64,000 nucleotides of DNA from a virus: the IMG/VR virus record IMGVR_UViG_3300010885_017276, positions 32,001 through 96,000 of that record; one strand, written 5' to 3'. Both the position numbers and the translations under genes were made by a program. Of this stretch, positions 43,931 through 63,500 are shown in pieces. The notes beneath the pieces were generated by a model. That model worked only from the letters and a program-made list of their open reading frames with translations, searched no databases and was not told the DNA's origin. Every line of letters begins with the position of its first letter. Position 1 is the stretch's first letter.

Positions 43931-46900
43931 CTATTCTTCTGAATTTTCGTCTTCTTCTAGAGACTCTTTGTTTATAAACATTGCTATTGGAACAAAGCTC
44001 TCTGAGTTGTTAAAGTGATTATAGGCATCTCTCTGAGACTTCAGGTTTTTGGCTGAATACAAGTCAAAGTATGATTTAGCTCCTACCAAGTTTTTAATAA
44101 GATACGCTTCCTGATTTGTCAATCCTGAATATCTTCCTCTGTCTACTAGACTTGTGTCAAATAAATTTTGAACACTGGCCAAATTTTCAATCTTAGATAA
44201 ACCTACAATAGGCTCTTTACTTGATGAATAAAACTCACCTAATATACCAAACTGAGAAGATGAAGTTTCGTTAGCAGTTCTCTCAAACATATAAGCTGTT
44301 GCTTGTGCTAGCATACTGTCATCATCGTCATCTGCCCACCCTGATATTGATAGAGTAAGTAGGAATAAGGCTGTCATAAAGGATGACTCGATCAATACCC
44401 TTCTTATGTTCTCTCTTTCAGTCTCATCTGCATTTTTATACATATTCTTGAGCTCTGTCATTGCCCCCATAAAGCTTTTACTTGCAACACCTTTGTTAAT
44501 AGTATTTGTAAATGTTCTCATCACAGATAAGTAGGAACCCTCTTCAAATTGCCCGGTTTGCATATTTAGATGCTTTCTCTTGAACCTGTTAGATGTACCA
44601 ATAGATAACCAAGCTTTGTGGGTCATTGTAAATCCTCCAAGTACGTGTCTTTGAAGCTGAGTTCTTTCTTCGTTCTTGATCTGACCATCTATTCTCTCGA
44701 TAAGCTTCTTAACCTTACTTACTACACCAAGCTCCATGTTTCTGAACTCTTTTTGGAACTCTTCTCCATTGGTCTTACCCATATCTTGGGCTAACTTGTC
44801 GTAGTTATAGGTAACGCTATTATCTTTGATATCTAAATAGCTGTAAAGGGTTTTATCTTTTAGTTTCTCCCAGTTACTCTTGATGCTATCCATTGTGATA
44901 TTTGGGTCTGACAGTTTTTGTAACTCCTCGAATTTTTTGAAGTCTACTAACTTATCACCAAATACCCTATGGCCGTATAATTGAGAAAGCATAGCTTTAG
45001 ACAACGGCACAAAGTTAGCTGCGGTGTGTAAGATGTACATGGATTTTGACAATGTTCTTACACCTTTGTTGTACATAGAGTTTTCAAATCTAGCATTTAG
45101 ATCAAATGCCCCAAAGTACTCACCCATTACAGATAATTTAGCCTTAGAGTTTATGTCTAATCCCTCACTAATAGCCGGAGTAGATATCTTTAAGAACTCT
45201 CTGTTGGCCATAGCCATAGAACCTTTGTCTACGTACTGACCAATAAGTTTTTCTAAGAACAGAGTAGTCTCTGCTGTAATCCAAGAGGTAAGTGGTACTA
45301 CCACGTTAAGAGCCAAAGAGTTATTCTTTACCCAGTTGTGCAACCAGTTTACAATCTTAGTAAGGTCTACCTGTCCTAGGAACGGAAGGTTAACCCTCCA
45401 CTGCTTTAACTCCTTTACTCCAAATAAGTTGTAGTCCATATAAGACTTAAACATCTTGTAAGTGTTGGTAGCTTCAGCAGCTTTACCATCAGGGTAAACA
45501 CGGTTCATTACCTTATCATTCAATACAGCAAACTCTGAGAATCTTTCTTTTTTAGCTCGGTATAACTCTGCTTGTTGTGCAAACAAGGCTGATGTATTAA
45601 ACAAATCCTCAGAAACGTCTGTACTAGCTTCTAGTTTTTTCAAGAAGTATTTAGGTATGATTCTAATGTTAGCCTTTTTGATCAAAGACTCACCTTGGAA
45701 CTCAGCACCAAATGCTTGCTCATCCACTCTAAATCTAGTAGCATCCAACCACATATCTTTCAAAGCCCCTTTTTTACCTTGGAGTAATCCTTGGATTTTT
45801 TGGAACTTAGTCTTGGATATTTGAGGTGCTAGATACAAGTTTTGTAAACCTAGTTCTCCATAAGATCGTAAACTTTCTTTTTGGAACTCCATGTACTCAG
45901 TGTACAAGTCGAACATCTTTTGGTTTCTGGTAGGTTGTATTTTACCGTCTTTTAAGATCGGGTTATTATTGCTATCCAATTTTGGCCCAAACATATCCAC
46001 AAACTTAGGGTTCAAAAACTTAGACAATTTTGGTTGTCTAGACCCACCCTCAAAATCTGATTTGTAGTTTTCGTTCTTGAACTTAATTTCCCCCATTTCA
46101 TAGTAAGAGAAATTATTACTAATTTTTATATCAGCTCTTTCATTAAGTGTAGTAACTAAATCTGTTACAGACTGATTTCCTGATTTTAAGCTTTTGTAAA
46201 AGTCAGATACTCCTATTGGAGAAAATGCTCTATAATAAGGAGCCAGTTTTGACTCAGCATACTTAAGTTTCAAACCGTCTATATCAGAAGGTAATATCTG
46301 AGATAGTTCATTGATCCCGGATATCTTTTTGATAAGCTCTTTTTGCTTGTCAGATACGTGTCTTCCTGAAGCAAAGTCATCTAATATATCAGAGAAATTT
46401 CTAACTTTTTTTCTGTTCTCCGGGGTCATATTTTTATAGTTGAAATCTAACTTTTCTTCAGTTGTATTTCTTCTATTATCTTGTAATGCCTCGTAGTAAG
46501 CTTGGTTAGGGGTTGACTCAGTTGTCGCTTCCTTTTCTTCACCTACCTGTGCAACATCCTTGAACAAAGTGTAGAGTAAATTATAACTTCTATCGATGTC
46601 TTCTGACAATCTCAAGATGTGCTCCTTTACCTCTGCAGGTATCTCTGATGCAAGTGTGTTTGTATAGTTTTTAGAATCCTGGTATCTTTTTAAGATAGCC
46701 TTTCTTTCCTCTAACTGTGATTTGTATTTTTCAATTTCATCTATCCAAGTCTGTTCTGCGTTAGGCCCCTGAGCATACGAATCGATATAGGTCATCATTG
46801 TCTCAGATGTGTCAAACCCATTCCAGAACTCAGAAGAAAAACCTAAGCTTGTATTAAGTAGGAAAAACTCTACTGCTGCTTCTCTACCCTCTTCCTTTTC

Positions 46901-49684
46901 GATCCTGTCTAACTCCTCTAAGAATTTAGGTGCAAGTTTCTCAACATCGATCTTATCTCCACCAGACAAAGCTGCCTCGGCATTCTTCTTATCGATAAAG
47001 GTCTTGTCTATCTTGTTGATTTCAAAGGCTAATGTAGCTTCCTCTCTAGCATCAGGAGATAACCTAGTATCTAGTTTATAGAACTTACCTGAAGACTCGA
47101 TAGTTACACCGTCCTCCGGCATACTAACTTCTATGATACCTTTCTTAAGACCCCCTAATTCATCGTGTAATGATTTAGCAGTTCTTCTTCTAAGGTTAAT
47201 CCCATCTAGGTTATGCTGATCTTGGTACTTGTATCTAGGTAGACCTTTTTCTGTTTTTACCCTTGCCATCAATTGACCTAAGTCTGTAGACAAAAGCTTC
47301 AAGAAGGTTCTAGTATTTTTACTAATGCCTAGGTCATCATATTCCTTTTCACGGTTTTCGTAGTATTCGTCTGTAAAGGAACGCTCAATAAAGGTGTTGA
47401 TTTCTTTTGTAACAGCATTCTTATATTCAAACTCAGCGTCCTTATCTGTGATAGGTGCTATAGTACCGTCCTCTATTTTCTTAGAGATTTGTTCTATTGA
47501 CTCTTGGCTTCCAGAGTACTGTTTGTATAGAGTAGCTCTAGTTTTAAGAACTTCCTTTTCAAACTTTTCCCAATCGTACAAGCTAACCACGTAACCATTT
47601 CCTTCAGAAAATTTAGCTAAGTCCTTTTCAAGGAAGCCTAACTCTCTGATTTTTTGTTGCCATTTTTTTACCCTAGACATGTACTTGTGCTCTGCATCTA
47701 AATTCATATCCGAGATAACACTACCCAAAATGTTCAATAATGGATCGTGAGCATGGGTAATTTGACCAAACCAAGAGTACAACAACTGAGTGTCCTTAGT
47801 TGCGTTTTCTATACCTTTGATCAAGTCATCTCTGTATTTATCATCAATACTATGTCTGACCATCAAACGGTCAACAACTCTGTTTAAGATGTTATTTTCT
47901 GTATTAGCTACCTCCCCCTTTACATTTGAGATTTCATCTAGTACATTTTTGATATCCTCTTCCAAAGAAGACAATTCCGGATCTTCTCTAACTAATACTT
48001 TTAGTCGCTCTAATACAGGAGCAATGTTTTCTTTTAGGTTGTATAATACAATACCTTCTTCGTTAGACAAGGTCTCGCCTCTTTTTTGAGCATCACGAAT
48101 AGCACCGGATAAATACACAGCGTATCGTTTGGCTAATTTTATAAGTTCTAGTCCAGAGCTTTTTGTCAAGGCTTTGTCCAAAGCGTCATTTAACCTCTGT
48201 ACCTCTGCTGTAGACCCCACACCTGCTCTTATCAAGGTTTTCTCTTGGTCTAGTAGTACTTGTACCAACAACTTAGCTACAGTGGCCTTAGAGTCCAACA
48301 TGGAGTTACCACTAGACTGTCCTGTCTGATACATTCTAAACTTTTTAGTTTTAGTTTGTTCAAGGTTAAGGTATTTGTTTATGTCTTGGCTTAATATTAA
48401 GTCTTCAACCTTCAGGGTCAAGTTTTCTAGGTCTCTTTTGTAGTCATCGCTAATGTTCAAACTATTAAAGAATTTTACAAACATGTCGTATATCCTTTTC
48501 AGGATATTGGCTTGTAGTTCTGTTTTACCCTCTGTGCTGAATCTAGTTTTCAAAGACTTAGCTAACTCTTTACCAAGTACCTCTCTTCTTACAAGGTTTT
48601 CAACTTCTTCAGCTGACATACCGGGGTTCTCCCTTGTGTATATCTCTCTGTAGTGTTGAGAATGCTCTTGGTAAGCCTCTGTCTTATTTATGTTTCTAAG
48701 TAGGTTTTCTATCTCTGCGTTATCCCAAGCTTCCACAATAAAGTGGCAAGTTTCCTCTGTCAGTAATTCTGGTGCAATAACACCGTCTTTGAATGCTACG
48801 ACTTGGTTTGCAATATCTGCTAAAGCTTCGGCAGATGGCTCTACACCATTGCGGATTTTGTAATTAGCAATGTAGTCTTGTATAGACATTACTTTTACCC
48901 CCATACCATTCAATAAATCTAAAAGCTTCAAGCTTAGATCTTTTTCTGATACAGTCGGTGGTTCTATTTTTGTACCTCCGGGCAAAGCTTCTTTTACTGC
49001 GTTGTTGATTGTCATCTGTAACGCAATGTCCTTCCCGAATCTTTTGGTCAATTCCTCTAAGGTGGAGCTTCTTATTTCTGAGATAGTTACAATTTCGCCA
49101 TTAACCTCGATGCTGTTTACTGCATCTCTTAGTTCTATTCTGCCATCAGTGTGAAGGGTTATGTTTTTACTGTTTAGATTAGTTACTGCGGACTCTTTGA
49201 TAAGTCTTTCATTAACCATCTGTAGTGCAGGGTCATTACCTTCTGCCTTATGGAAAGTCTTGCCGTCTTCTATTATCTTTTCATCAGACAATATGCCGTC
49301 TTTTATAAAGCTGTTGATAAACCCGTTGAAGGTGGACTCGTTAGTATTAGAAGATACAGACATAAAGTTTTGAAAACCCTTTCCTGTTTCTATACCAATT
49401 TCTATTAGCCCCCCTGTGGAGTTTGTCAATGCTTCTTTATAAGTCTGGAATACACTTCCTGTATCAGATCTAAAGGTCAAGGTTGGCTCCTCTAATTCAG
49501 GTTGGGATATTTCTTTTTTTTGCATACTCTGAGAGTATACGTTTTTGAACACCTCTAGGGCCTCTTCTAAAGAAGATACGTGGGGTAATCTAGCTATTTG
49601 CTTAAACAGCCTACTTTCAACTCCTTTTGGAGTAAGAACTGTTTTTATACTACCCTCTTCGTTAAACTTTATTGTACAAGTCAT
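43931..49684 (-). CDS. giant virion/ejection-type protein (1917 aa) with degenerate zincin domain and C-terminal TM segment
   Basis: LTEETCHF...REVLG...KRIYDMF zincin-like pattern; helical body; hydrophobic FMTALFLLTLSISGW. Confidence 0.7.
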   Translation of the reverse strand: MTCTIKFNEEGSIKTVLTPKGVESRLFKQIARLPHVSSLEEALEVFKNVYSQSMQKKEISQPELEEPTLTFRSDTGSVFQTYKEALTNSTGGLIEIGIETGKGFQNFMSVSSNTNESTFNGFINSFIKDGILSDEKIIEDGKTFHKAEGNDPALQMVNERLIKESAVTNLNSKNITLHTDGRIELRDAVNSIEVNGEIVTISEIRSSTLEELTKRFGKDIALQMTINNAVKEALPGGTKIEPPTVSEKDLSLKLLDLLNGMGVKVMSIQDYIANYKIRNGVEPSAEALADIANQVVAFKDGVIAPELLTEETCHFIVEAWDNAEIENLLRNINKTEAYQEHSQHYREIYTRENPGMSAEEVENLVRREVLGKELAKSLKTRFSTEGKTELQANILKRIYDMFVKFFNSLNISDDYKRDLENLTLKVEDLILSQDINKYLNLEQTKTKKFRMYQTGQSSGNSMLDSKATVAKLLVQVLLDQEKTLIRAGVGSTAEVQRLNDALDKALTKSSGLELIKLAKRYAVYLSGAIRDAQKRGETLSNEEGIVLYNLKENIAPVLERLKVLVREDPELSSLEEDIKNVLDEISNVKGEVANTENNILNRVVDRLMVRHSIDDKYRDDLIKGIENATKDTQLLYSWFGQITHAHDPLLNILGSVISDMNLDAEHKYMSRVKKWQQKIRELGFLEKDLAKFSEGNGYVVSLYDWEKFEKEVLKTRATLYKQYSGSQESIEQISKKIEDGTIAPITDKDAEFEYKNAVTKEINTFIERSFTDEYYENREKEYDDLGISKNTRTFLKLLSTDLGQLMARVKTEKGLPRYKYQDQHNLDGINLRRRTAKSLHDELGGLKKGIIEVSMPEDGVTIESSGKFYKLDTRLSPDAREEATLAFEINKIDKTFIDKKNAEAALSGGDKIDVEKLAPKFLEELDRIEKEEGREAAVEFFLLNTSLGFSSEFWNGFDTSETMMTYIDSYAQGPNAEQTWIDEIEKYKSQLEERKAILKRYQDSKNYTNTLASEIPAEVKEHILRLSEDIDRSYNLLYTLFKDVAQVGEEKEATTESTPNQAYYEALQDNRRNTTEEKLDFNYKNMTPENRKKVRNFSDILDDFASGRHVSDKQKELIKKISGINELSQILPSDIDGLKLKYAESKLAPYYRAFSPIGVSDFYKSLKSGNQSVTDLVTTLNERADIKISNNFSYYEMGEIKFKNENYKSDFEGGSRQPKLSKFLNPKFVDMFGPKLDSNNNPILKDGKIQPTRNQKMFDLYTEYMEFQKESLRSYGELGLQNLYLAPQISKTKFQKIQGLLQGKKGALKDMWLDATRFRVDEQAFGAEFQGESLIKKANIRIIPKYFLKKLEASTDVSEDLFNTSALFAQQAELYRAKKERFSEFAVLNDKVMNRVYPDGKAAEATNTYKMFKSYMDYNLFGVKELKQWRVNLPFLGQVDLTKIVNWLHNWVKNNSLALNVVVPLTSWITAETTLFLEKLIGQYVDKGSMAMANREFLKISTPAISEGLDINSKAKLSVMGEYFGAFDLNARFENSMYNKGVRTLSKSMYILHTAANFVPLSKAMLSQLYGHRVFGDKLVDFKKFEELQKLSDPNITMDSIKSNWEKLKDKTLYSYLDIKDNSVTYNYDKLAQDMGKTNGEEFQKEFRNMELGVVSKVKKLIERIDGQIKNEERTQLQRHVLGGFTMTHKAWLSIGTSNRFKRKHLNMQTGQFEEGSYLSVMRTFTNTINKGVASKSFMGAMTELKNMYKNADETERENIRRVLIESSFMTALFLLTLSISGWADDDDDSMLAQATAYMFERTANETSSSQFGILGEFYSSSKEPIVGLSKIENLASVQNLFDTSLVDRGRYSGLTNQEAYLIKNLVGAKSYFDLYSAKNLKSQRDAYNHFNNSESFVPIAMFINKESLEEDENSEE

Positions 49685-49700
49685 GTTATATTATTTTAGG

Positions 49701-49731
49701 CAAAATTACAATTTTTATTTGAGACTGCAAA
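49701..49731 (-). promoter_or_regulatory. sigma-A promoter for the 1917-aa gene
   Basis: reverse complement TTTG-N19-TAATTTTG. Confidence 0.7.
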
Positions 49732-49741
49732 ATAAATTAAA

Positions 49742-52700
49742 TTATTTACAGTTAAAATACTCATTATTAATTTGCTCAAGTTCTTTTTTAGTATAGTATT
49801 GTTTTGACTCTTTGAATATCTCCGGTGAGTTCTCTAGATGTTGGTATTGAGAGAAGTCGATGTCCGACAAAGGTTTTTCAATATCTGTCAATTTATAATC
49901 TGTGTCTACATCAGGTAACTTGTTATAAAACTTCACATTACCAAATTGGTAAATCATCTCGAATACCCCCACAGGAGTTCTCACGAAGGTCTCAGTTTCA
50001 TTTTTAGTAGCCATCACACCATCCTCTAAGTAAGTGTAATTACCCTTTAGTTTTTTGACACTTTCAGGATTGTTTACAACATCTTGTCTTTTCTCTTTTT
50101 GAGAATCTATGTACTCTCCGGCTTTTTCTTGAGACTCTAGACCTAATTTTAGAGTTCTTGATAATACATCGTATTGTGCCAATGATTCTTTGAACTCTTC
50201 GGGTAAACTCAAGATAGCTTCTGATTTGTTTATCTCGTCATTTGCTATTAACTCTATACCTCTTTCAGTAACTGTGAAGTACTTGTTGTTTGTTTCTAGA
50301 ATCCATTTGTTGAAGTCTTTTATAAAGTCATCTTTCAACATCTCCGGATCCATAGTCAAATCAGTCAAGCCTTGTGTGCTAACTTTTTTAGTATTAATTA
50401 CTAAAGGAAAGCCAAAGTACATCTTGTACAACAACATCTTTTCTAGCAATTCTGAATCTACTTGAAAATCAGGTATCTCTAGTTTAGAGATAGTCTTTGA
50501 CACATAGTTTTTCAAGTCTTCCACAGAGGTTATATTTCCTGGCAGTAGGTCAACATTTTCCATCATGCTGTCGTACATATCTTCTAAGGATTGCTCTGTA
50601 ACTATTCTGTAAACACCGTCTTGTTTCTTAACTAGGCTGTGGTCTCTGAATAATTCATACTCTGTATTTTCTGCATCCAAGAACACATCCGACATGTTGT
50701 CTGTTATTATTAACTCCTTTGAAGGCTCAGTTATGTCAAACATTGCATTGTACATGTCAGCAAAAGTAGACAAGGTTTGTTCTGAAGGTTCTACTAATAC
50801 ATCCTCCATAGCATTCAAAAAGTCAAGTACATCCTCTCTACTGTGAGTAATAGCTTTTGTTGCTAAGTCTCTCAGGTCAATGCCGTTTTTAGCAGCATCT
50901 TTCTTTATTTTATTCAAGATTTTGCCAATAGCATTTCTGCTCTCTTCCCAAGTCTCTTTTCTAATAGAGCTGTTAAGGAAATCAATATTTTCAGACATAC
51001 TTCCATTGTAATCATCTGTGATAGTGTTTGCAATACTACCTATGGTGCTTGGTAATTTATCAACAAGTTCCCCGTTTATTACAGTCTTTACTGGGACTGA
51101 TTTTGTGGTTTTGTTTAAGTCGTCTACCAATGCTTTGAACTCTTTGTCTTGAGCATATCTTTCAGCCAATACCCCATCTAAATTAGCAGGGATTTCTTCT
51201 GGTGCTACATCTGATACAGCATCTGCTATCTCTCGTTCTATCTCAAAAGGATTAGAGGATCTTTGTTTACCAAGTGAGGTTAATTCAGAAGACATAGGGA
51301 TTACAAAAATAGGGTTATACTCTACAGAAAACTCTTCTGTGTTTCTAAGCTTTAATAGAGTCTCTCTTATATTTCTTTGAATATCCGGAGAGTTCAATAT
51401 CATATCTATCTCGTAATCATTATACATCTTACTTCTTTCTAGCTTCATTCTGCTGAATGTTACAACACCCTTTGTGCTTAAAGCCTTCATCAGACTTGTG
51501 TATAGATCCTTTGAATTAGTTAATCCAAACCCTAACATAGCGTTTTGTACATCCATTACCTCTTCATTTTCAAGAGCTTCTGTTTTAGCAGAGTTAAACT
51601 GTAAAACTGTGCTTGCATCAGGTTCACCGTTTTTATCAAAACCTTTTGGTGAAACAGGTCTAGCTTTTCTAATCATTTCAAACCCTGATGTATTTCGGAA
51701 TCCTAGAGAGTTATAAAAGTCTCCTAGTTTATCTTCGTCTGTAATCCCACCATCTCTTGAACTTACTGCTAAGTATACATCTTTTCCAATTGAATCTGTA
51801 TACTTCAAGAAAGCTTCTGCTGCTTTTCTAGCGTTTCCGTTTCCTTTATTATCAGACTCTAGTAATTGAAGTTCTATCTGTCCTGTGTCTTCTCCGGTGA
51901 TAGGGTTTATTCTATCAGCAGCAAACACCCTAGCACCATTCATATCTACGACTGGTTTTCTAACATTGCTACTACTAGTAGTAGTAGTTTGAACTTTCGG
52001 CTCTTCTACTCTATTATCTTCTACTGAGTTAGTTCCGTATTTTTCTTGAACTTCAGATAAAAGACCTGACCTTTGAGCTGATGTATAGTACCCTTTAACT
52101 ATATCATTATTACTAGCTGTCACAATGTGGTCTAAAACTGTTATGCTGAACTTTTCTAATTTTCTAGAGATATCTTTTACCGAAGAAAAATTATCTTGAT
52201 TACCGTAAAATATAACACTTTTAGCAATTCCAAACTCTCCTATAAAGCTAGTCAATTCTTCGTACTCAATACCATCTTGAAAAACGTAGTTTCCAATAAT
52301 TTTATTATTTTGGTCTAAAATAAGAGCTGCATTTTTAGGCATAGCTGAAAATCTAAACTGTTGTATGACATTAGCGGAATCTTCAGCTCCAGCCACTTTA
52401 CCTAGAGGCTCTGATAAAATCTCTTGCTCATTAAGGGTATAAGTAGTTAAGTTTTCCTTTTTACCTTCTGTTTCAACTCTGGCTACACCTTTTGCTGATG
52501 TTAGTCCAAACTCATCTAATATAGTATATTGTTTACTATATGTATCCATTATAACATGCTCCAAAGAAATGTTTAATTCTTTTAGTCCAGAAGCCACTCT
52601 TGAAGTAATTTCTGAATCAGCCGCACTTGGGTTTAAGTTACCACTTGGGTGATTATGTACAAGATACACTTTTTTAGATTTGAATTTATTAACCCCCGAA

Positions 52701-55700
52701 AGAACTAGTCCGGGATCAATAACTGTACCTGTAGATCCCCCAACACTTAAAAATTGGATATGTGATTTACCTTTAGCATCCGTATGAACTGCAAATGCAT
52801 GCTCTACAGATTTGTTTTCTAGTAAGCTCATAATCTCAGCTACATCAGCAGCATTCTTTACTCTAGTTGTACCAGTAAATTGTAAATCTTTGGATTTATT
52901 CCAAATACCTTTTACTGAACGAAATACACCGTTGATTTTATCTCCCTCCCATTGTATTCCATCTCTTGAGTCGTAATCCACATCTCCAGATTCTGATAGA
53001 TAGGATACTCCACTTTCGGTTGTTGCTGTTGTTGATCTTCCTTCATATTCTTTTGCTCTTTTTGGTTTTGATAAAGCAGATTTTTTGTTTTTACTATCTA
53101 ATAGCATTTTACTATAGATATCTTTTATTCCAGGGTTTAATTCGTTGATGTCTCCAAAATAAGCTATTGCATCTTTTATAACTTCAAAGAACCAATCTTT
53201 TAGTCTTTTGAATATACCGTCAATATCTCCATTTAAGTTGGCACCTTCATATATGTATCTTTCAGCACCTTTTGCAAAAGCTTCTCTAAATTGTTTTGTG
53301 CCTTTTTTATGTCCGCTCCAATCTTCTACAATTTTAACTTCTTGTGTTGTTAATACATCTTCATATTTATGTGCTAACTCATGTACAGGAGTTGTTACAT
53401 CTGCATTATTTTTATCTAATAATATTAATGTAGATTCCTCTGTTCTTACAATAGCCCCTCTTCTATCTTGTTTGTCTATAGATACATCAAATCTATCGCT
53501 AGATACATCAAACCTAGTTGATGAAAGAAGATTTGGTACCTTAACGGCACTATTAACAATCCTTAATTTTTTATCTATTTTAGTAGTTGGAGGTAATAGT
53601 TCGTTTTCAGGAATCTCAATTGTACAGTTGTCAAATTGTAAATCATACAAAAAAGTTACATTTTTTCCTATGTTTAATACTCTATTATTTTTATTTATAT
53701 CAGAGTCTTGTATTACTATATCAGCTTTTATAACGGAGTTATCTGGGATATCTATCACTGCAATAGCTCTATCACTAGATATAAATCTAACAATAAAATC
53801 TGCATTTTCTGGTATAAAGTCTATATCTGTATTTTCAAAGTTGACAGTTCGGAGAAAATATGCATCTTTTATTTTTTCCATACCGCCACACTTTTCAAAA
53901 GTAGTAGTCGAGCCAAATAATGTACCTCTGCCAAAATTGCTATCTCCAAAATATATACTTTGGAAGTCTACAGTATTGTAAAACACAACATTATTCCCAA
54001 CATTAAATTCCTTTATTTTTTCAAAAATCGCAAAACCTTCTTTATCAGCACCTTCACCAGGTAACATACCTATTTTAGCTTCCGATTCTATATCTAATTT
54101 AATAAGATTTTCTAAAGCAATCCTATTTATTTTTGCCCCTTTAGATATTCTTAATGCAGTATTTGAATTACTCCAGAGTCCCGTACCCTTAAAACTAAGA
54201 TCATCTATTTGTACATCAGGCTCTATAACAAGTAATCCTCTACCATTATGAGAACTAAATTTTTTAAGTTTAGTTCCTTTTTCTATATTAAATTTTCCGT
54301 CAAAAGTTATATCATGTAGTATAACTTCTTCTAGACTAGAACTTTTACCTATAGTAAAATTTTCAATAATGGGAGCATTTGTTAAAATTAATCTTTTAAT
54401 TTGAGCCCCATTAGTTATATTAAGATCATTTCTTAGATGCACTTGATTAAGAAATAATTCTGATATCTTAGCTGTAGACGGGATACTAAAGCTTTTAGGT
54501 AACCCATCTAATCCTGGAAAATCAGCTATATTAAGAATTTTAAAATCTACATTATCTGGTATAGTAAACCCCTCTTCAAAATCACAAAGGCTTAATTGTA
54601 TAGTTGAACTATTTTTCATACCATTTGGAATTGCCCCTTTTGGTAAGTTTGACTCAGAAATTGTGATACCCATCCTAGAATTACTATCATTTGGCAATTG
54701 AAAACCCTTGTTGAGATAGCATTTGTTAATATATACTGATTCTAACATATTATTTTCCAACAAAGTAAAATCTTCAAAAGTGGTGTTAATTGCTGAAAAA
54801 CCACAACCTGCATATTTAGGTATACTAAAACCTTTTTCTATTTTTGAACCTGCTAAAAATATCTCCCCTATGCTAGAGGGGATTACAAAATCTTTTGATA
54901 TTTTAGAATCATCAATTCTTAGCGCACCATCTATTCTAGTACTTTTAGGTATTGTAGAATCTGTTATTGGGATTGTTGAAATGCTTAACCCTCTTTCAAA
55001 ATGTAAATTTTCTAAGAATTTAACACCTTTCGCCTTAAAAGATCGATCATATTGGAAAACATCTTTAAAGACACATCCATTACCAATAACTAGATTTCCA
55101 GATATATTAGATCCATCAAGAGAGAAATCTGTTAGTACAGAGTTATCTTCTATAATAAGATTCTTAAAATATGAATTTTCAATTTTAATAATCGCCTCAC
55201 CTAATTTTGGTAATATAAAATCATCCTTGAATACAACATTTTCTAACCCAAAAAACCCGTTTACTTTTCCAGAATTTCCAAGTTTTAGTTTTAAATCTTT
55301 TGAATTTTTTACTCTAAGTGCCTCAGTTTCATAATTGTCTCCTATTTCAAAAGAGGCCACATTTTTAATATTAATTGTTTTTTTGGAATAAAAGTTTTTT
55401 CCTATTTTTATAGATGACATAAGATTCTTAAATTTATCAGAAGTCTCAAACTCTATATCTGTTGCACTTACATTATCACCAATAATAATTTCAGAAGCAT
55501 TGTATATAGTTATATCACCTGTTACTTTTAAACCATTTGGTAAAGTAACTATATCTTTTTCATCCGAAGTATAGATAGTAAGATCACCAATTATAAGTTG
55601 ATTTTCTTGTATGTCAAATCCAGTTATTGTATTTACACTAGTATACTCTCTGTTACTGCTTATTTTGGAGTATATTTTGTATTTTTCGTTTACGTCTGGT

Positions 55701-57457
55701 AATTTATTTTTATCAAAGTCTGCTCTTAGGTCTCTATACTCTGATTGTTTTGCGGAATCATAAGTTTCTAATCTTAAACCCATAGTATCAATATAATCTT
55801 GTAGATCTTGTTTACTAAAATCTTCATTATTAACTAACTTATGGTATATTCTAGATGTCTTTATATTATTCGCATACTTAAGACCGTTTTGTATTTTTGG
55901 CAGTTTTTTGTATGCCTCGTCTGCCTGCTCTTTGGATAAAGCCTGTCCTGCATCTGTGCCTTTTAGTTCGGATATATCGCTACCATCGTATCTAATAGTA
56001 ATGGTAGGTTCTAATGTTTTGTCTAAGAATAGATAAAAATCTCCTTTTGGTAAATAGCTAGAAGCCATACCCCCACCAGTACACCAAGGGTTTGAAGACA
56101 TAACTTTAGCTACCTTTTTACTAACTAATGTTAAGGCTTTTATATCACCTTCTTCACTAGATTTATTGAACTTTACCCAATAGCCATTCTCAGTCTCTTC
56201 TTCAATTCTGTCTTTGATTAAATCCCAAGTTTCTTCTCTTGTGATAAAAGCTTTATCTGTGTGTTTGTCAATAAGTTTTATTGGATGTGTATCACTTCCG
56301 TTTTTTAAGTCCTGGTATACATTTGGCAATACCATAGAAGATAGTTCTTGGTGATTACCCACAGTCATTGAATTTCTTTTTGCTTTCTCTCCGGGAATTG
56401 TTCTTGTTACATTACCGTTGTCATCTAAAACCTCTATGTCTTTAGCTACGTTACCCTTCAAGGTAAGAGCAACCATCATATATTTAAACTCTGCTGAATA
56501 ATCAGAAGATGGTATTATATACTCCAAAGAAGAGACTAAATTAGCTCTTTGTATACCCTGTAAGTTTTTTATATTTTCAGATATAGCATAGCTGTTACCA
56601 TCTATAAGAGCTTGTATGGACTCTTTTTCTGCTTCTGTTACAGCTCTTTTTAAAGAGGACTGCAAGAAACTAGGAGATAGTTCTTGTATGTAAAAGTCAT
56701 TTGTGTTTGCAGCTCTATCTTTAATCTCTAGAAGTCTTCTATTAATTTCAGCTGTTATTTTTTCTTGGTTACCTAAAGAAGATAATTTTGTAGTATAGCC
56801 TAAGAATCCAAAAGTTTCTTCTAAGTCTAATAAAGAGGACATGATGTAATTATCTTTAGCTATACCTAAGTTTTTGATATATTTAGGCTGTACTGTTTGG
56901 TAATCTACTGTGGTGCCTTCTTCTGTTACCCCGGAAAAGTCTTTGATTAATTGATCAGATAAACCAGATAGTTCTGAAATAGAGTTTGGCACATCTTTCA
57001 AGAACTCTTGCACATTGCTTACAGTTCTTATAGCCATACTTCTCTTTAACTGCTCTACAGTTTTTCCTAGTCTCTTTGCAATATTAGTATAGATTATATT
57101 TGCAACTTTTTCTAGTGTATCTGCTTGGTCATCAGAGATTTTCTCTACTTTTTTAAGTTCGTTAGCTATAGATGTATCCCAGTTACCTTTGTCTTCTAAA
57201 ACTTCCTCCTGCACAGGAGTTAGTGCAGATGGTTCTACTGAAGATACGATACCTTGATTAAAAGAGTTTATTTTGTCTTGTGATATAGACTTAAAATCCT
57301 CCAGTTCAGTCAAGGCATAAAGATTTAAGGCGGCATTTTTATTACCGCCTGTCATCTCTGCTAATGTATCAAATAATTTACTTCTGTTTCCGTCTGGTGT
57401 TTGTACAAAGTCAATTTCACCTTTTTCATCTCTGAAAATTCTACAGTTTAATGCCAT
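49742..57457 (-). CDS. giant polyvalent protein (2571 aa): PcfJ-like, beta-solenoid repeats, zincin, JAB/RadC x2, GNAT
   Basis: PWCT...GDFY; repeat region; PVHELAH...EAFA; HNHPSG..PS..D; degenerate second JAB (LDHIV); KGNGNA...FYNSLGF. Confidence 0.8.
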   Translation of the reverse strand: MALNCRIFRDEKGEIDFVQTPDGNRSKLFDTLAEMTGGNKNAALNLYALTELEDFKSISQDKINSFNQGIVSSVEPSALTPVQEEVLEDKGNWDTSIANELKKVEKISDDQADTLEKVANIIYTNIAKRLGKTVEQLKRSMAIRTVSNVQEFLKDVPNSISELSGLSDQLIKDFSGVTEEGTTVDYQTVQPKYIKNLGIAKDNYIMSSLLDLEETFGFLGYTTKLSSLGNQEKITAEINRRLLEIKDRAANTNDFYIQELSPSFLQSSLKRAVTEAEKESIQALIDGNSYAISENIKNLQGIQRANLVSSLEYIIPSSDYSAEFKYMMVALTLKGNVAKDIEVLDDNGNVTRTIPGEKAKRNSMTVGNHQELSSMVLPNVYQDLKNGSDTHPIKLIDKHTDKAFITREETWDLIKDRIEEETENGYWVKFNKSSEEGDIKALTLVSKKVAKVMSSNPWCTGGGMASSYLPKGDFYLFLDKTLEPTITIRYDGSDISELKGTDAGQALSKEQADEAYKKLPKIQNGLKYANNIKTSRIYHKLVNNEDFSKQDLQDYIDTMGLRLETYDSAKQSEYRDLRADFDKNKLPDVNEKYKIYSKISSNREYTSVNTITGFDIQENQLIIGDLTIYTSDEKDIVTLPNGLKVTGDITIYNASEIIIGDNVSATDIEFETSDKFKNLMSSIKIGKNFYSKKTINIKNVASFEIGDNYETEALRVKNSKDLKLKLGNSGKVNGFFGLENVVFKDDFILPKLGEAIIKIENSYFKNLIIEDNSVLTDFSLDGSNISGNLVIGNGCVFKDVFQYDRSFKAKGVKFLENLHFERGLSISTIPITDSTIPKSTRIDGALRIDDSKISKDFVIPSSIGEIFLAGSKIEKGFSIPKYAGCGFSAINTTFEDFTLLENNMLESVYINKCYLNKGFQLPNDSNSRMGITISESNLPKGAIPNGMKNSSTIQLSLCDFEEGFTIPDNVDFKILNIADFPGLDGLPKSFSIPSTAKISELFLNQVHLRNDLNITNGAQIKRLILTNAPIIENFTIGKSSSLEEVILHDITFDGKFNIEKGTKLKKFSSHNGRGLLVIEPDVQIDDLSFKGTGLWSNSNTALRISKGAKINRIALENLIKLDIESEAKIGMLPGEGADKEGFAIFEKIKEFNVGNNVVFYNTVDFQSIYFGDSNFGRGTLFGSTTTFEKCGGMEKIKDAYFLRTVNFENTDIDFIPENADFIVRFISSDRAIAVIDIPDNSVIKADIVIQDSDINKNNRVLNIGKNVTFLYDLQFDNCTIEIPENELLPPTTKIDKKLRIVNSAVKVPNLLSSTRFDVSSDRFDVSIDKQDRRGAIVRTEESTLILLDKNNADVTTPVHELAHKYEDVLTTQEVKIVEDWSGHKKGTKQFREAFAKGAERYIYEGANLNGDIDGIFKRLKDWFFEVIKDAIAYFGDINELNPGIKDIYSKMLLDSKNKKSALSKPKRAKEYEGRSTTATTESGVSYLSESGDVDYDSRDGIQWEGDKINGVFRSVKGIWNKSKDLQFTGTTRVKNAADVAEIMSLLENKSVEHAFAVHTDAKGKSHIQFLSVGGSTGTVIDPGLVLSGVNKFKSKKVYLVHNHPSGNLNPSAADSEITSRVASGLKELNISLEHVIMDTYSKQYTILDEFGLTSAKGVARVETEGKKENLTTYTLNEQEILSEPLGKVAGAEDSANVIQQFRFSAMPKNAALILDQNNKIIGNYVFQDGIEYEELTSFIGEFGIAKSVIFYGNQDNFSSVKDISRKLEKFSITVLDHIVTASNNDIVKGYYTSAQRSGLLSEVQEKYGTNSVEDNRVEEPKVQTTTTSSSNVRKPVVDMNGARVFAADRINPITGEDTGQIELQLLESDNKGNGNARKAAEAFLKYTDSIGKDVYLAVSSRDGGITDEDKLGDFYNSLGFRNTSGFEMIRKARPVSPKGFDKNGEPDASTVLQFNSAKTEALENEEVMDVQNAMLGFGLTNSKDLYTSLMKALSTKGVVTFSRMKLERSKMYNDYEIDMILNSPDIQRNIRETLLKLRNTEEFSVEYNPIFVIPMSSELTSLGKQRSSNPFEIEREIADAVSDVAPEEIPANLDGVLAERYAQDKEFKALVDDLNKTTKSVPVKTVINGELVDKLPSTIGSIANTITDDYNGSMSENIDFLNSSIRKETWEESRNAIGKILNKIKKDAAKNGIDLRDLATKAITHSREDVLDFLNAMEDVLVEPSEQTLSTFADMYNAMFDITEPSKELIITDNMSDVFLDAENTEYELFRDHSLVKKQDGVYRIVTEQSLEDMYDSMMENVDLLPGNITSVEDLKNYVSKTISKLEIPDFQVDSELLEKMLLYKMYFGFPLVINTKKVSTQGLTDLTMDPEMLKDDFIKDFNKWILETNNKYFTVTERGIELIANDEINKSEAILSLPEEFKESLAQYDVLSRTLKLGLESQEKAGEYIDSQKEKRQDVVNNPESVKKLKGNYTYLEDGVMATKNETETFVRTPVGVFEMIYQFGNVKFYNKLPDVDTDYKLTDIEKPLSDIDFSQYQHLENSPEIFKESKQYYTKKELEQINNEYFNCK

Positions 57458-57477
57458 TATTATGTTTTATTTTTATG

Positions 57478-57509
57478 CAAAATTACGAAATTACTTTTAT
57501 ATATCCAAA
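57478..57509 (-). promoter_or_regulatory. sigma-A promoter for the 2571-aa gene
   Basis: reverse complement TTTG-N20-TAATTTTG. Confidence 0.7.
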
Positions 57510-57529
57510 TTTGTTAACTTTTTTATTCA

Positions 57530-60500
57530 TTAACAATCCTCTAGATCATCTATAATAGTTTCAACTTTAGCTCTGTATTCTGGACTTACTTTTACTAACT
57601 CTCTTAGCAAGGCTACAACCTTTGGATGATCCAAGAAGTCGTACTCTTTTGCTGTCAAAGTATTATTTATAAACTTATCTAGTATCTCCGAAGCTTTTTC
57701 ATCTGTAAAGTTTATTCTCCAGTCTTTTACTGAACTAGTAAGTCCGTTTGGGCTCAAATCAATAATAGGTTTAGGTGAAGACAAAGGATTGTCTGTCATG
57801 TCTACAGCTATAGAAGCATCGTTTACTAGGTCCTCTGCTGAATAGGCTTGACTCATCCATTCCTTTACATCTGCTGTTTGTTCTACCTTATTTAGGTCAG
57901 CTATAGCTTGTTGTAAGTTTCTAGTTATGTTTCCTTCTTGGTCAAACAGTGTTTGATTCTCCATATCTAAGAAATGTAAATCATACTTTGTTGTAGAAAG
58001 TCCGTTGTCAACTAGCATTTGGTTTAGCTCTAAAGACAAGGATGCTAAGTTTTTACCATCTCCTTTTTGGAACTCATCAACCATACTATTCAAGAACGCA
58101 TCTCCTATGTTATTATTTGTCTTTTTAAGATTCAAGGGGAAAGCAAACAAATACTGTCCTTGTCTCATTACAACTACAGGAGTTCCGTTCTTATTCAAGA
58201 ATTTACTAACGTAGTCCTTTCTAACTTTTGTAGTCTTACCGTCCTTAAGCACAAGCTTTCCGTTTTGTATGTAACCATAGGTTACTACTTTTTTAGGCTC
58301 TATCTCAAAGTATTTTATTTTACCATCTTCATACACAAAGTTTGGTGTTCCTAGAAGTAGGTGTTTAACTTTTGTTTGTATCGGTAACTCTAAATTAGTA
58401 CCACTTACAGCTACCCCTCCTTCAAGAGCCAATTTTACTGCGTTTAATGCAGCCAGTCTAACTCTCAAAAATCCAGGACTGTCTGAAATGTCATAGTTAG
58501 CCTTCAGATCGCTTAATTTATTTCCTCGGTAGTCTGTGGCATTTATCTTGATATTGTCCATTAGATCTTTACCTAGCTCTTCCTCAGTCTTTGCATTAGG
58601 TACACCGTCTTCAATATCTTGTAATCCTTGTTGGTAACCTTCGATTAATATCTGGTTGTACTCATTCTCAAGGTCTACTGAAAATAACACAGGTTCTCCC
58701 GGTAGCATTTCGTATAGTTGGCTTGGTGTATAGGTATTAGAGTCCTTGAAGTCTGTACTAAGATTCTTGTTAGTTTTTAGATCATACACAACCCCATATC
58801 CGCCATTGTTATATAGCTTTATGTTGTTGGTCTGTAGACTAGCTTGGTTAAATATGTTTTGGTATTCTGCCTTACTTTTGAAAAGTAGTCTACCACCTTT
58901 GTCTATTCTAATTACTGCTGAACTACCATCTTCTAATACCACTGTGAACTTAGCACCAACCTTGGCAAGAGTCTCTAGGTCTGTCAAAGACAAGTTATCC
59001 TTAGAGCTTTTTACAATCTCCTTGTTGCCTTTGGTTTCTACTTGTTCGTATCTTATAGTATCTAAGGCTAGTCTTTTTAATAACCCGGCCAAAGTCAAGT
59101 GTGATACAGAGGTTCCATTTTTGGTTTGAGATACAAACACATTTTCGTAAGTCTGAAGAATCTCTCCATTTCTTATAGGTTCCCCTTCATCTGTTATTGA
59201 AGGATTTGGGTCTACCGCTGTTTGTAGTTCTACGTCTGTAAGTTCAACATCTGGTATTACTGGAACGGTCTGTGACCTTGCAATATCTTGCATTATCATT
59301 TCTGCTATGGATACTCCATCCTTACTTCCGTAAGCTTCTAGTAATCTCCAATTTGCAAATTTCTCGTTAAGTTCTTGCAGTCTTAATACCTCTTCTTTTG
59401 ACAAAGATACCAAGTTTTTTCCTAACTGTGGTAAGGTACTATTTCCATAAGGACTCTTAAATGAGATAGTTTTGTTGTTTATTTTTGGATCATTTATAGC
59501 TCTCTCGGCCAAAGCTTGAAACTCTAACATCTCAGCTTCAGACGGCATTTTAGGAGTGGTTTCTGTACCGTAGTACTCCATTAAATAGGGGCTATTCTTG
59601 ATAAGGTTGGCAATAAAATCTTTTATAGAAGTTTTTACCTCTGCTACATTAGTAGACTCTAGTTGATATCTTTTATTAATCTCATCTATCTTAGCTTGCT
59701 TTTCCTTTTCTAGCTTTTCTATTTCTTTTGCATTGCCTTCTGCTTCACTTTGTGCATTAGTAGCAGCAGTTGCTGCAGCCGCATTAGCTTGTTTTAAGCT
59801 ATCTAATAAAGGAGTGATTAATTTATCATACCTGTCATATATTTCATTATACTGGTCTAGGACAGCAGTAGTCATCATGGTCTTATCTACCTTACCATTA
59901 ATAACTTTATAGTCTTCTATATTAGGTATTTTAGAAAGCATTTCGTTTTGCTCCTGCTCTCTTAAATCTGCTATTTGCTGTTGTATATTTTGAGGAGTGG
60001 CTGCTATATTAGACAATTCGCTACTTAATAAAGCTAAGGTACTATTAACGTGATCATAGAACTCATTGGAGTCAGTATTTTTACCAGCCGGTTTTGTAGG
60101 TAAGTTCATAGTATCGTTAAAAGCTTCTAAATCTGCTTTACCATCACTTAAAAATCCTATTCCGTCCTTTAATCTACCGTTACCGTTATTCTCTCTGCTT
60201 TCAATAGTCCCTATTCCCTCATTAAGTATCTTAGAAAGCTTCTCAAATAATTGGAATCCGTAACTATTATTTATTTGTTCTTCTGAACCTTTGTTTATCC
60301 ACCCTTTCTCTACTCCAATCCCAAATACTGCATACCAATTGCCGGCTTTTACATTTTTCTTACCTGCTTGTCCAGTACTGATATAAAAAGGTATGTTGTA
60401 TTTACCTATTTTCATCATTACCATTACTCTATCAGAGTAATCGACTACGTTGTATTCTTGACCATTAATATTAATTGGAGATAGTAAATTATTACTTCTT

Positions 60501-63500
60501 AACCAATCTAGTTTTTCATTTAGGGTAGTTAGTTTATTTAACTCTGCTACTATAGTGGCTACTGGTGTAGATACCAAACTAATATTAGACTCTGATTGTT
60601 GAACAGGAGCTTGTTGTTTTTTTAACTCTGCTATCTTGTCATCGTACTCTTGTGTTACTTTGGCAATAGCTTCGTCTCTCTTGGCTTGTTTTTCTTCTCT
60701 TGTGGGTTTTTTAATAGAGTCCCCGACTTGTGCTGTTTCGGTTTCCTCTTCGTCTTGCCCGGCCTTTTCTATTACTTCTTTTACAGGTTCAGCAGTTTCT
60801 ATCTTATTGATAAACTCCTCTACCCCTCTCTCTTGCATACTATCTAGCACACCTTGTAAAAACTCAGCTGTCATCAAGTTAGGTGACTTGTCTGAGTATA
60901 TTTCTGAGATGATGTTTCTCTTGCCTCTTAACCCAAGTTTTGGATCAGATAGTTGTCTAGCTAAATCAGCATATCTTTTGAATGCATAGATAGACTTACC
61001 ATACTCGCTTACTAACTTTTGTAGTTTTAGTGCTTGTTGTGGGTCTATCTTTTTATGCTCTTGAATTAACTCCTTTATTCTTTGTATGTTGTTCTCTCTG
61101 TTTTGTAGGGTAGTAGATGTTATTATTAACTCGTCTACATCTTTACCGAAAGGGTTTGTTAGATTAGCTGTTTTTATCAACAGTCTGTACTCAGTGGTTA
61201 GTTGCTCTTTTTCAGTTTCTAACTGAGCCATTCTAGTTCTAACACCATCAATCTTGTTTAGTGCATTTCTTCTACTTTCAGGGTCAGAAATAGTACTAAT
61301 AGTATTTTCTAACTGCTTGTACTCTTGCTCTAAGCTAACTCTTTCTTTTTCAAGTTTTACAATTTGCTTTTCTGTATTCTTAGCTTTAGTTTGAGTTTCT
61401 TTACCGGCTTTTAACAAGGTATCCTCAATAGATAAAGCTGTTGAGATTTCTTCTCCCAAAGTTTTACCAACTTCATTTTTTATAGATGTCAGCAAGTCTT
61501 GAGAGAACCCATGAACTTTTTCTCCAAGAGTCAATTCGTAAGCAACAGCATCCTTAATGGCTGACATACTTACTTTGTCAAGTTTTGCTTTTTCTTCTTT
61601 TGTTAGATTGTCATTCAAGTAGTACTCAGCAAACTCTCTATTTTTGGTGTAAGTTTTTGTAGTATCCTTGTACTCATCAATCATCTTTTGCTTCAAATCT
61701 TCAGCACCTTGTTCATCTACTTTGTACTCTTTCATTATAGACTCATTGTCTATATTCTTGATAGCTGCCTCTGTTTGTTTTACAGTTTCATCTGTGTACT
61801 CTAAGTTATGTGCATGTGAAATTTGAGCTATTATCGAAGATTGTCTTGATAACTCTCCCCCGGTAACATCTCCTGTTTTTCTTGCGTTATCTATTCCCTC
61901 TCCGGCTGCTTGTGATCTACCTGCGTATGCAATAGTCTGAGCCATTTTGTTTGGGGAGTAGTTGCTATCGTAGAAAGCCTCTAAATTTTTTACTTTTTGC
62001 TCTTCTTGAACAAACTCGCCTCTAAGGCTTTTATTTTTATAGGCACTAATACCTGTACCAGTCAATAGACCGATAAGCATACCAATACCTACCTCTTTCA
62101 TTCCTTCTTTTGTGCCATAGGTATCCGACAAACCTTGTGTAAAGGCATCACCTATTTGCATTGTATTGTGTAAGTACTTGGGGTCGTATGTAGATTTGAT
62201 CCAGTTTTTAGCTGTATTTTGACCAACAGACTGCATACCCTCTTCCCATAGACCTTCTATTAAGGCACTCTCTCCAAGGTTCCAGCCGTATTGAGCTGCT
62301 TTTTGGAATTTAGTAGCTGTTTTGGCTACTATTTTGCCTTCAACACTCTCTAGACCAATCCCAAATATTTTAGAATTTGCCCATTTTGAAGAGGCCGAAA
62401 GTGGACTACTCATATCAAATATTCTACCGATAGTCATCAAGTTAGATGAACCAACAATAGCCATATTGTAACCGTACAAAGCATTAGCTGAATTTGTCAA
62501 GTCTTTGTCAAACTCATCTAACTCTTTTTGTGTGGGTTTTCTGTTATTCTTAGATTCAAAATCCTCTAAGAAATTATCTTTGCTTTCTCGTATATAAGTA
62601 CGAGCCTCCATACCAGATTCAAATCCTGCTGAAGTGTATGTAAATCTTGCTACGTTGGCTAGTTTTCCTGCTTTACCAAATGCCGTTGCCATACCTACAG
62701 GTAGTTTGGCATTTGCATAGGTTTGTAATATTGGTTTAGAAGCTATACTTCTAGCCTCTGCCATAGCTGTCATCTTACTAAGACCTCTTTCTAATCTAGA
62801 CCCCGATGCGGCAAATCTTTCAAGTTTAGCACCTAATCTAGCTGCACTAGTAGCCACTGCTGCTCCTCCTGTTGCATAGTCCCAGATAACTTCAGAGCCA
62901 ATGGCAGAAACTGTAAATGCCGCACCACCTAGTACGTCCTTAGCCCAAAAATTAGCTGTACCCATAGACTCAAAAAAGCCCATGTCCTTTTCCTCTTTGG
63001 TATAATAGTTAGGCAGCTTGTAATCCATTTTCTCATTAAGGTCATCAATATAGTTATTGAACTGGTTATCGTAAGTGGCTCTAAAGCTTCCTTGTTTTAC
63101 CCCCTCATAGATACCATTTACTGTGCCAACCGTGCCTCCAATTATACCTGTACCAACCTGCCCTGCAAATTTAGTTAAACCATTTATCCACTTATCTGCT
63201 GTACTTTGTGTTTGGCCTGCGTACTCTGCATTATCTACACCTACCTTATAATCATCATATTTTTTTATAACAGAGCCATCACGCATGGTTGCATAAGCAT
63301 CCTGTACGTTGTAGTTTTTTTCATAAAAAGATAATTTTTCAGGTCCTCCTATCTCAGTGCCAAAAGCCAAACCATTATCCGGGTTAAAATCTTCCGGTTG
63401 GTCTGGCAATTTTTGTCTTTTTGGATCTGTGTAACTACTTCTTATATCCCCAATAATACTCTCTAGTCCTGTAGCTGGAGCAGCAGAAAATCCTTGTGCT

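Follow-up and report, generated by a model that had tools for sequence, protein, structure and literature searches.

The minus-strand gene at 49742..57457 of the window, by which we mean the whole 64,000-nucleotide stretch analysed here (IMG/VR virus record IMGVR_UViG_3300010885_017276), encodes a 2571-aa protein, P0001, that is likely to be a phage-type polyvalent protein made up of a carrier and a cargo slot. The window corresponds to bases 32001-96000 of the complete, 124,055-bp genome of an uncultured marine-type phage, which has a 123-bp direct terminal repeat (DTR) and which is related, according to PHROGs and BLAST, to the Cellulophaga phages phi4:1 and phi17:2. A sequence-only reading had described this gene as a virion protein in which polyvalent effector domains are stacked as an interchangeable payload. 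All of the features noted by that reading fall within one intact, uninterrupted open reading frame (ORF) of 2571 codons, which combines at least two unrelated conflict-type domains (RadC, a GNAT fold, a zincin-like domain and a solenoid). The positions of the motifs were confirmed: WCT lies at aa 458 (nt 56086), HELAH at aa 1359 (53383), HNHPSG at aa 1601 (52657), YGNQDN at aa 1751 (52207), KGNGNA at aa 1871 and DKNGEP at aa 1941 (51637).

The carrier consists of an N-terminal header (57287..57457, minus strand; aa 1-57), which contains Cys5 (codon 57443-57445), and of a C-terminal module of about 630 residues (C-module; 49745..51637, minus strand; aa 1941-2571), which begins at DKNGEP and ends in ...FNC(2570)K (Cys codon 49748-49750). 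The header is followed by a linker (57209..57286, minus strand; aa 58-83), at which the part shared with cargo-swapped relatives ends. The sequence-only reading had placed DKNGEP correctly, after its series of cargo domains; it is no cargo but the start of the carrier module itself and can be recognised even in distant minimal members. When aa 1822-2571 were searched against 1.8 billion representatives, 355 clusters were obtained at E<=1e-3. Architectures were counted with local profiles in the best 150 of these 355 clusters, and 123 of the 150 were complete, with header and C-module both in place. The C-module was C-terminal in 145 of the 150 representatives and the header was N-terminal in 128. 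The carrier family is also marked by its cysteines, since 131 of 153 members (549-2561 aa) have exactly two, located in the first 8 and the last 4 residues; the genome-wide Cys frequency is 1.0%. P0001 has these two terminal residues, C5 and C2570, plus seven Cys in unit A.

The C-module matched phrog_29175 over profile positions 18-514 of 517 (hmmscan, E 4.5e-20) and phi17:2 gp38 by BLASTP (1e-26), and its top match in BFVD had an E value of 3.5e-28. Its phi4:1 counterpart, gp037 (gp37), is a virion protein by experimental tandem mass spectrometry (MS/MS), so that the virion-protein claim is borne out in part, at the level of homology. Foldseek and VIA gave no convincing PDB fold match for the C-module, although at 750 residues the model was too large to test this fairly; Foldseek also listed the phi14:2 polymerase 6vr4, but so weakly (E 0.026, prob 0.38) that this is no evidence of a relationship. 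A viral-contig search with the whole protein returned no match, nor did searches with P0079 or P0165, each a minimal member used singly. No patterns could be derived from the broad alignment A1 because of its divergence, and it was the closer alignment A4 that led to eight viral loci.

Analysis of the distance between header and C-module revealed a slot of highly variable content. Among the 123 complete representatives the gap ranged from -1 to 2118 aa: 40 had less than 30 aa, 26 had 60-150, 22 had 150-300, 11 had 300-600, another 11 had 600-1000, nine had 1000-1500 and four had more than 1500 aa. The slot is empty in 40 of these 123 members, the minimal proteins being about 620-700 aa long. 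Comparison of orthologs, which the earlier reading had suggested for the insert, thus showed an architecture that varies and an insert that may be absent altogether. Exchange of the cargo is seen in P0032, which is 77% identical to P0001 over aa 1-83 and 92% identical over aa 1823-2571 (749 residues), yet carries ART-PolyVal and DUF3990 between these shared ends. This swap at 92% carrier identity, together with a slot length of 0 to about 2100 residues, indicates that the payload is indeed interchangeable. P0041 and the eight viral loci have only the ends in common with P0001 and are mosaics of other modules, while P0002 is collinear with P0001 (65-74% identity) and has an extra insert of about 193 aa after JAB2. 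This insert spans residues 1865-2057, between JAB2 and the GNAT domain; PF02195 (ParB) appears in the precomputed list for P0002 but was absent from our own scan at E<=0.001.

In P0001 the slot contains two cargo units, A and B, and both recur in 60 giant proteins that bear polyvalent domain families (ART-PolyVal, Kinase-PolyVal, LPD1/5/23/38, InPase, ddrB-ParB, PBECR2 and MuF_C). The presence of these families in relatives that share its modules places P0001 among the polyvalent proteins, as had been proposed. The composition of the central part also agrees with the earlier reading, which had found it AT-rich: GC is 0.27-0.31 over 53000-56000, and GC at third codon positions (GC3) is 0.19 in the cargo, 0.34 in the C-module and 0.29-0.37 in neighbouring genes, the mean for the ORFs of the genome being 0.294 (standard deviation 0.081). 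The low cargo GC3 points to a different history of the cargo.

Unit A (aa ~96-1456) has a constant order in 14 relatives: first the PcfJ-like domain, then a solenoid that varies in length, then the zincin; on this comparison, the three domains travel together as one unit. The N-domain of the unit (55667..57172, minus strand; aa 96-597) has a conserved core at about aa 407-600, in which G425, W427, F430, W458-C459-T460-G461, E497 and Q505 are invariant in the 14 relatives. The sequence-only reading had called this WCT region PcfJ-like. In ESM Atlas 28 of 30 named matches were to PcfJ (score 0.91, 155/256 shared features), but the PcfJ profile PF14284 gave no HMMER match at E<=10, either with the protein piece or in a six-frame search of the genome, and a literature search on PcfJ returned plasmid names only. 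Because PF14284 is unmatched and the resemblance comes from a language model, the label was not confirmed as it had been stated, and we call the domain PcfJ-like without filing it as a member of PcfJ. In 11 of the 15 proteins with unit A, a set that includes P0001, no Cys other than C459 of the WCT motif lies away from the termini, which marks this residue as functionally needed. Retention of this internal residue makes the PcfJ-like domain a probable enzyme.

The second part of unit A is a beta-solenoid (53540..55666, minus strand; aa ~598-1306). In an AlphaFold2 (AF2) model of aa 271-1470, computed from a 15-row alignment with a mean predicted local distance difference test score (pLDDT) of 75.4, this block was all-beta with a pLDDT of mostly 75-90, in agreement with the roughly 700 residues of beta-solenoid/LRR-like repeats that had been read from the sequence. 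Its fold matches in VIA were generic (beta-helix, TPS, tailspike and LRR chains, Z 10-14), and its length among relatives ranges from about 330 to 740 aa. The rows of the fold searches with this 1200-residue model were taken up by the solenoid; these searches therefore do not show that the PcfJ-like domain or the zincin has a new fold. Six of the seven internal Cys of P0001 are in the solenoid (aa 795, 885, 913, 958, 1190 and 1278), an oddity shared by P0002.

The zincin-like domain with its HExxH motif (53078..53482, minus strand; aa ~1326-1460; HELAH at 1359-1363) matched phrog_9880 with an E value of 1e-8. Residues H1359, E1360, H1363, E1366, E1392 and E1399 do not vary among 15-17 sequences. 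In the model, three strands at model residues 1056-1077 precede the HELAH helix (1085-1098), and the helices that follow, up to residue 1134, bear E1392 and E1399 (pLDDT 54-84). This arrangement agrees with the layout given for zincin-like metallopeptidases (MPTases) in the available part of Iyer, Burroughs, Anand, de Souza and Aravind (2017, J Bacteriol, PMC5512222), namely a three-stranded sheet, a HExxH helix and a later helix that provides a Glu ligand. In sequence searches, a PDB search with the zincin piece gave chance rows only, the zincin profile had no match in PDB, and a Pfam scan of 17 members gave no consistent match. Comparison by hhalign with the LPD23-associated M78-like zincin of P0022, P0025, L013 and L015 was also negative. 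The assignment of HELAH to a zincin is therefore supported at a weaker grade, by invariant residues and model topology.

Unit B (51992..53068, minus strand; aa 1464-1822) contains a RadC/JAB domain and a degenerate JAB. About 30 giant proteins also contain it, in differing places along the chain and at 45-57% identity, and, on this distribution, the two JABs move as one unit. The first, JAB1 (52541..52858, minus strand; aa 1534-1639), matched PF04002 with an E value of 1.4e-18 and 67.4 bits, above the cut-off of 22.1, and also scored with NCBIfam RadC models. Its JAMM motif E...HNHPSGNLNPSAAD is intact, with E1552, H1601, H1603, S1611 and D1614 in the pattern E...HxHx7Sx2D, as expected from the intact JAB/RadC site that had been noted at HNHPSG. 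In the second, JAB2 (52106..52402, minus strand; aa ~1686-1784), other residues stand in place of Glu, HxH, Ser and Asp alike, so that metal ligands are absent and the catalytic residues are lost. Alignment of JAB1 with JAB2 by hhalign brought 96 columns into register (P 0.0036, probability 9%), and JAB2 matched Pfam RadC over 26 aa (E 0.02). These weak matches support the earlier claim of a degenerate second JAB, at a lower grade than that for JAB1. It is plausible that JAB2 arose as a degenerate duplicate of JAB1; judged by its residues, it is a degenerate copy and no RadC-family enzyme.

Between unit B and the C-module lies a mini-GNAT domain (51647..51952, minus strand; aa 1836-1937), identified by AF2 fold, VIA/Foldseek matches and motif. 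The AF2 model of aa 1822-2571, based on a 52-row alignment, had a mean pLDDT of 89.2, and the mini-GNAT within it had 89. Its best VIA match was AcrVA5 (6iuf; Z 12.6, root-mean-square deviation 2.3, 90/95 residues), a protein that acetylates Cas12a; the next row had a Z of 10.2, and the further 49 rows, with Z of at least 8.5, were almost all GNAT-type acetyltransferases. Foldseek gave prob 1.00 on many GNAT chains. After AcrVA5, the closest GNAT folds were tRNA-acetylating toxins (AtaT, TacT) and RimI-type protein acetylases. GNAT enzymes bind the pyrophosphate of acetyl-coenzyme A (acetyl-CoA) through a Q/R-x-x-G-x-G/A motif, and 51 sequences share a conserved CoA-type motif, RGxGxA(R/K), for which P0001 has KGNGNAR. 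The region at aa 1820-1960 is short and divergent and had no Pfam/NCBIfam GNAT match at E<=10; a sequence search of PDB with it gave chance rows only. The mini-GNAT is common to P0001, P0032, P0041 and all eight viral loci, and it stands directly before the C-module in 49 of the 123 complete family members. The sequence-only reading was thus right about the GNAT fold and motif but not about its status as cargo, since in this subfamily the domain is part of the constant C-terminal portion.

Considering these results, we propose that the carrier, with its 57-residue header and C-module, would place P0001 in the virion, and that the slot directly after the header would be filled by recombination with cassettes from the pool of polyvalent proteins. 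In this phage the slot would hold unit A, comprising a PcfJ-like domain with an essential-looking Cys, a solenoid spacer of about 700 residues and a zincin-like domain, and unit B, comprising an active-looking RadC/JAB and an inactive JAB. The mini-GNAT would follow unit B as a constant element in front of the C-module. The neighbours of the carrier are two giant, Cys-poor virion proteins, with a lysozyme-bearing protein upstream, and we infer that the block of giant proteins forms an internal or ejection set. By analogy with other polyvalent proteins, P0001 would be packaged, would leave the particle with the DNA and would act early in the host, possibly against its defences. Following proposals of Iyer et al. 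(PMC5512222), the zincin may cleave host proteins or divide the chain itself into pieces, the RadC domain would probably act on nucleic acid, and the GNAT domain may acetylate a protein target.

Several observations weigh against this proposal. The presence of P0001 in virions rests on a homologue that is 25% identical, and the zincin and PcfJ assignments are without support from a hidden Markov model (HMM) or a solved structure. The solenoid is equally like tailspikes, adhesins and lyases, which would allow an extracellular role of unit A. The cargo GC3 is within the range of the ORFs of the genome (minimum 0.137). Finally, P0001 and P0002 hold 7 and 10 internal Cys, unlike the rest of the family, and these residues fit poorly with a chain that has to pass through the tail free of disulfides.

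The strongest alternative, although we judge it unlikely, is that the effectors are delivered to take over the host or to compete with other mobile elements, for example by switching off nucleic-acid or protein functions of the host, and do not serve in anti-defence. The domains of P0001 have no sequence match to a known anti-defence family, the GNAT folds that follow AcrVA5 are the AtaT and TacT toxins and RimI-type acetylases, and the ART and kinase cargo of relatives resembles host-modifying enzymes, all of which suit such a role. By contrast, the top structural match of the GNAT domain is an anti-CRISPR protein, which may however merely reflect shared small size, and the fast turnover of cassettes in close relatives is what an arms race predicts.

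It is less probable still that P0001 stays in the particle as a structural ejection or tail part, with its domains serving assembly or the cell surface. The zincin would then be a maturation protease, the solenoid an adhesin, a depolymerase-like rod or a spacer, and the GNAT domain a modifier of virion proteins. Consistent with this, the solenoid resembles in fold the beta-helices of tailspikes, TPS-adhesins and polysaccharide lyases (Z 11-14) and holds six of the seven internal Cys, as an exposed oxidised domain would, and the available part of Iyer et al. (PMC5512222) discusses autoprocessing by MPTase domains before packaging. However, RadC and GNAT are cytoplasm-type domains, and the slot of relatives holds ART, kinase, InPase, ParB and SNF2 helicase domains. 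The slot is moreover empty in about a third of the complete members (40/123), indicating that particle assembly does not depend on what the slot holds, and the solenoid always lies between the PcfJ-like domain and the zincin in proteins that are otherwise Cys-free.

The suggestion that the JAB pair counters ubiquitin-like conjugation, as a deconjugating peptidase acting on Bil or CBASS Cap2-type defences, could draw on the complete JAMM site of JAB1 and on a weak Pfam match to Toxin-JAB1 (E 0.0013, below the cut-off), but it is very improbable and was left unsupported by our results, given that JAB1 scores as RadC (PF04002, NCBIfam) and not as an MPN or Cap3-type JAB, that the available part of Iyer et al. 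(PMC5512222) argues that RadC lacks the groove for a ubiquitin tail and acts on nucleic acids, and that a literature search on RadC/JAB in phage anti-defence found no paper showing such an activity.

The gene of P0001 is one of a series of very large genes that form a late block on the minus strand and encode, in transcription order, proteins of 2704, 353, 2181, 903, 645, 950, 2001, 2571 (P0001) and 1917 aa; the terminase and portal genes lie further along the same strand block. PHROGs and BLAST showed that the late block is syntenic with the virion-protein block gp41-gp36 of phi17:2/phi4:1, and the annotation of the phi4:1 proteins of that block comes from experimental MS/MS proteomics. The upstream 2001-aa virion protein (57530..63535, minus strand; phrog_32390) has a single Cys, its last residue (codon 57533-57535). 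The downstream 1917-aa virion protein (43931..49684, minus strand; phrog_37651, E 2.6e-205) begins with a P0001-type header and contains Cys3 (codon 49676-49678) and one other Cys. According to the header HMM, this header opens the downstream family as well, being found in 114 of 120 relatives and in the 1917-aa protein itself (E 4e-9). The downstream family (P0214-P0333) has its own cargo slot right after the shared header: eight longer aligned members (2012-2910 aa) have about 130-990 residues inserted at this point, and some of the longer members list LPD23 or GNAT Pfam domains.

Two other products of the late block were analysed. The 2181-aa protein (L005:9524-16069, minus strand; genome 103524-110069), which has zero Cys, carries a phage tail lysozyme domain at its N-terminus (PF18013, E 2e-31) as well as PG_binding_1 and is probably a wall-cutting ejection or tail-tip protein. 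The 2704-aa protein (L006:3233-11347, minus strand; genome 111233-119347) has DUF285 repeats, DUF11 and 37 Cys, unlike the Cys-free block, and probably serves as an exposed fibre or adhesin. The gaps 5′ of the P0001 gene and of the next gene (57458-57529 and 49685-49741, minus strand) each contain GTAATTTTGC followed by an A-rich run. TAnnTTTG is the -7 element of Bacteroidota promoters, and TAATTTTG fits it; each giant gene may therefore own a separate promoter, and the host of the phage is probably a member of the Bacteroidota.

The arrangement of cysteines in the late block follows a rule that extends beyond the carrier family. In three adjacent giants, which have hardly any Cys away from their ends, the pattern is a C-terminal Cys in the first, a Cys at both ends of the second and an N-terminal Cys in the third (...C, then C...C, then C...), and it was present at all 10 loci inspected. 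These include all eight viral loci, among them two near-duplicate pairs, and phi17:2. In the distant gut phage csAssE-Sib the first three positions of the pattern are kept, and the annotated start of the next large protein is without Cys. In the downstream family (120 relatives, 28-97% identity) a Cys is found in the first 8 residues of 119 members, no other Cys is found in 110, and none of the 120 has one at the C-terminal end. The proteins that precede the upstream giant (2181, 903, 645 and 950 aa) have zero Cys, and the median Cys content of 62 giant relatives is 0.035%.

The C-module of phi17:2 is divided between two proteins: gp39 ends with profile positions 19-102, and gp38 consists of positions 111-637. 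A Cys is present on both sides of this break, so that the terminal-Cys rule has moved with the chain break. At the junction (L002:12100-12320) the two genes overlap by 17 nt; read in two frames, one set of bases within the overlap supplies gp39 with its C-terminal Cys and gp38 with its Cys4. This junction may be a true split or a programmed frameshift site. We had also considered gp39 as the N-terminal counterpart of P0001, but rejected it, as gp39 is the orthologue of the upstream 2001-aa ORF.

The pattern suggests that the three adjacent giants are linked head to tail, in gene order as upstream-C ~ C-header-cargo-carrier-C ~ C-header-downstream. A fuller model can be offered only tentatively. 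The three giants would be joined through their terminal Cys, as a head-to-tail chain or in a shared four-Cys knot, by disulfides or by metal, with the header acting as the coupling element and cargo tolerated only after the header; the Cys-free chain would stay able to unfold and pass the tail, after which the pieces would be set free by the zincin or by the reducing cytoplasm. If this were true, the phage would possess a covalently coupled "ejection train" with swappable enzymes. A literature search on this topic found no description of ejection proteins coupled through terminal Cys.

The sequence-only reading had also described the central part of the gene as lacking an avoidance of CCAG/CTGG seen elsewhere. 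This avoidance is real, in that the words are nearly absent from a 32-kb plus-strand region (window 8001-40000, genome 40001-72000), with 22 occurrences against about 115 expected on base composition. Elsewhere in the genome they occur at or above expectation. Since the late block as a whole shows no avoidance, the contrast says nothing specific to the insert, and we rejected the words as an insert marker. The avoidance is regional and strand-symmetric and concerns one asymmetric 4-mer. Other words avoided relative to a Markov expectation were GAATTC (0 vs 19), AACGTT (0 vs 15), GGACC (4 vs 27), CCCGC and GCGGG (0 vs about 9 each) and CGCG (2 vs 16), and CATG/GATC occurred at about half of expectation.

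Phage-type polyvalent proteins themselves are known; the new elements are the definition of a carrier family that has a slot, the two units of cargo, the occurrence of RadC on a phage carrier, and the terminal-Cys rule. Polyvalent proteins are thought to bring ready enzymes into the cell, and few of their carriers are defined well enough for experiments. The present family offers a precise slot whose content varies in nature, from none in a third of members to about 2100 residues, natural cargo swaps at 92% carrier identity, and cultured relatives with proteomics (phi4:1 and phi17:2). It opens to experiment the questions of how packaging is determined and of what the individual cassettes do, and the terminal-Cys rule points to a physical coupling of ejection proteins.

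P0001 resembles the phage-type polyvalent proteins of Iyer et al. in being a giant chain of conflict domains (zincin-like MPTase, RadC and GNAT) encoded among virion genes, and its relatives carry Pfam families derived from that work (PMC5512222). By contrast, the available part of that paper describes RadC only in the polyvalent proteins of conjugative elements, whereas here the RadC unit is part of a phage protein; the relatives P0033, P0048 and P0053 add to it InPase, LPD38 and ddrB-ParB, which are phage-only domains according to the same source, and P0061 also carries MuF_C. The carrier, the slot after the header and the terminal Cys do not appear in the available text of Iyer et al., and that of Bartlau et al. 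2021 holds nothing bearing on this phage group. The N4 virion RNA polymerase and the P1 Dar proteins, as presented in the available part of Iyer et al. (PMC5512222), are likewise virion-carried enzymes that are delivered with the DNA and have a zincin-like domain in the chain; P0001 differs from them in having no polymerase by Pfam and no demonstrated sequence relation. AcrVA5 (6iuf) is like the mini-GNAT in that both are truncated GNATs of about 95-105 residues from mobile elements, but the two are 14-15% identical without a demonstrated sequence-level relation, and the domain of P0001 is fused in front of a virion module. The closest counterpart of the C-module is phi4:1 gp037/phi17:2 gp38 (phrog_29175), which shares with it end-to-end homology, the same neighbourhood and the same terminal Cys. 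Unlike P0001, this counterpart is a protein of 517 aa with neither header nor cargo, and in these phages the first ~85 positions of the C-module are fused to the end of the upstream giant gp39.

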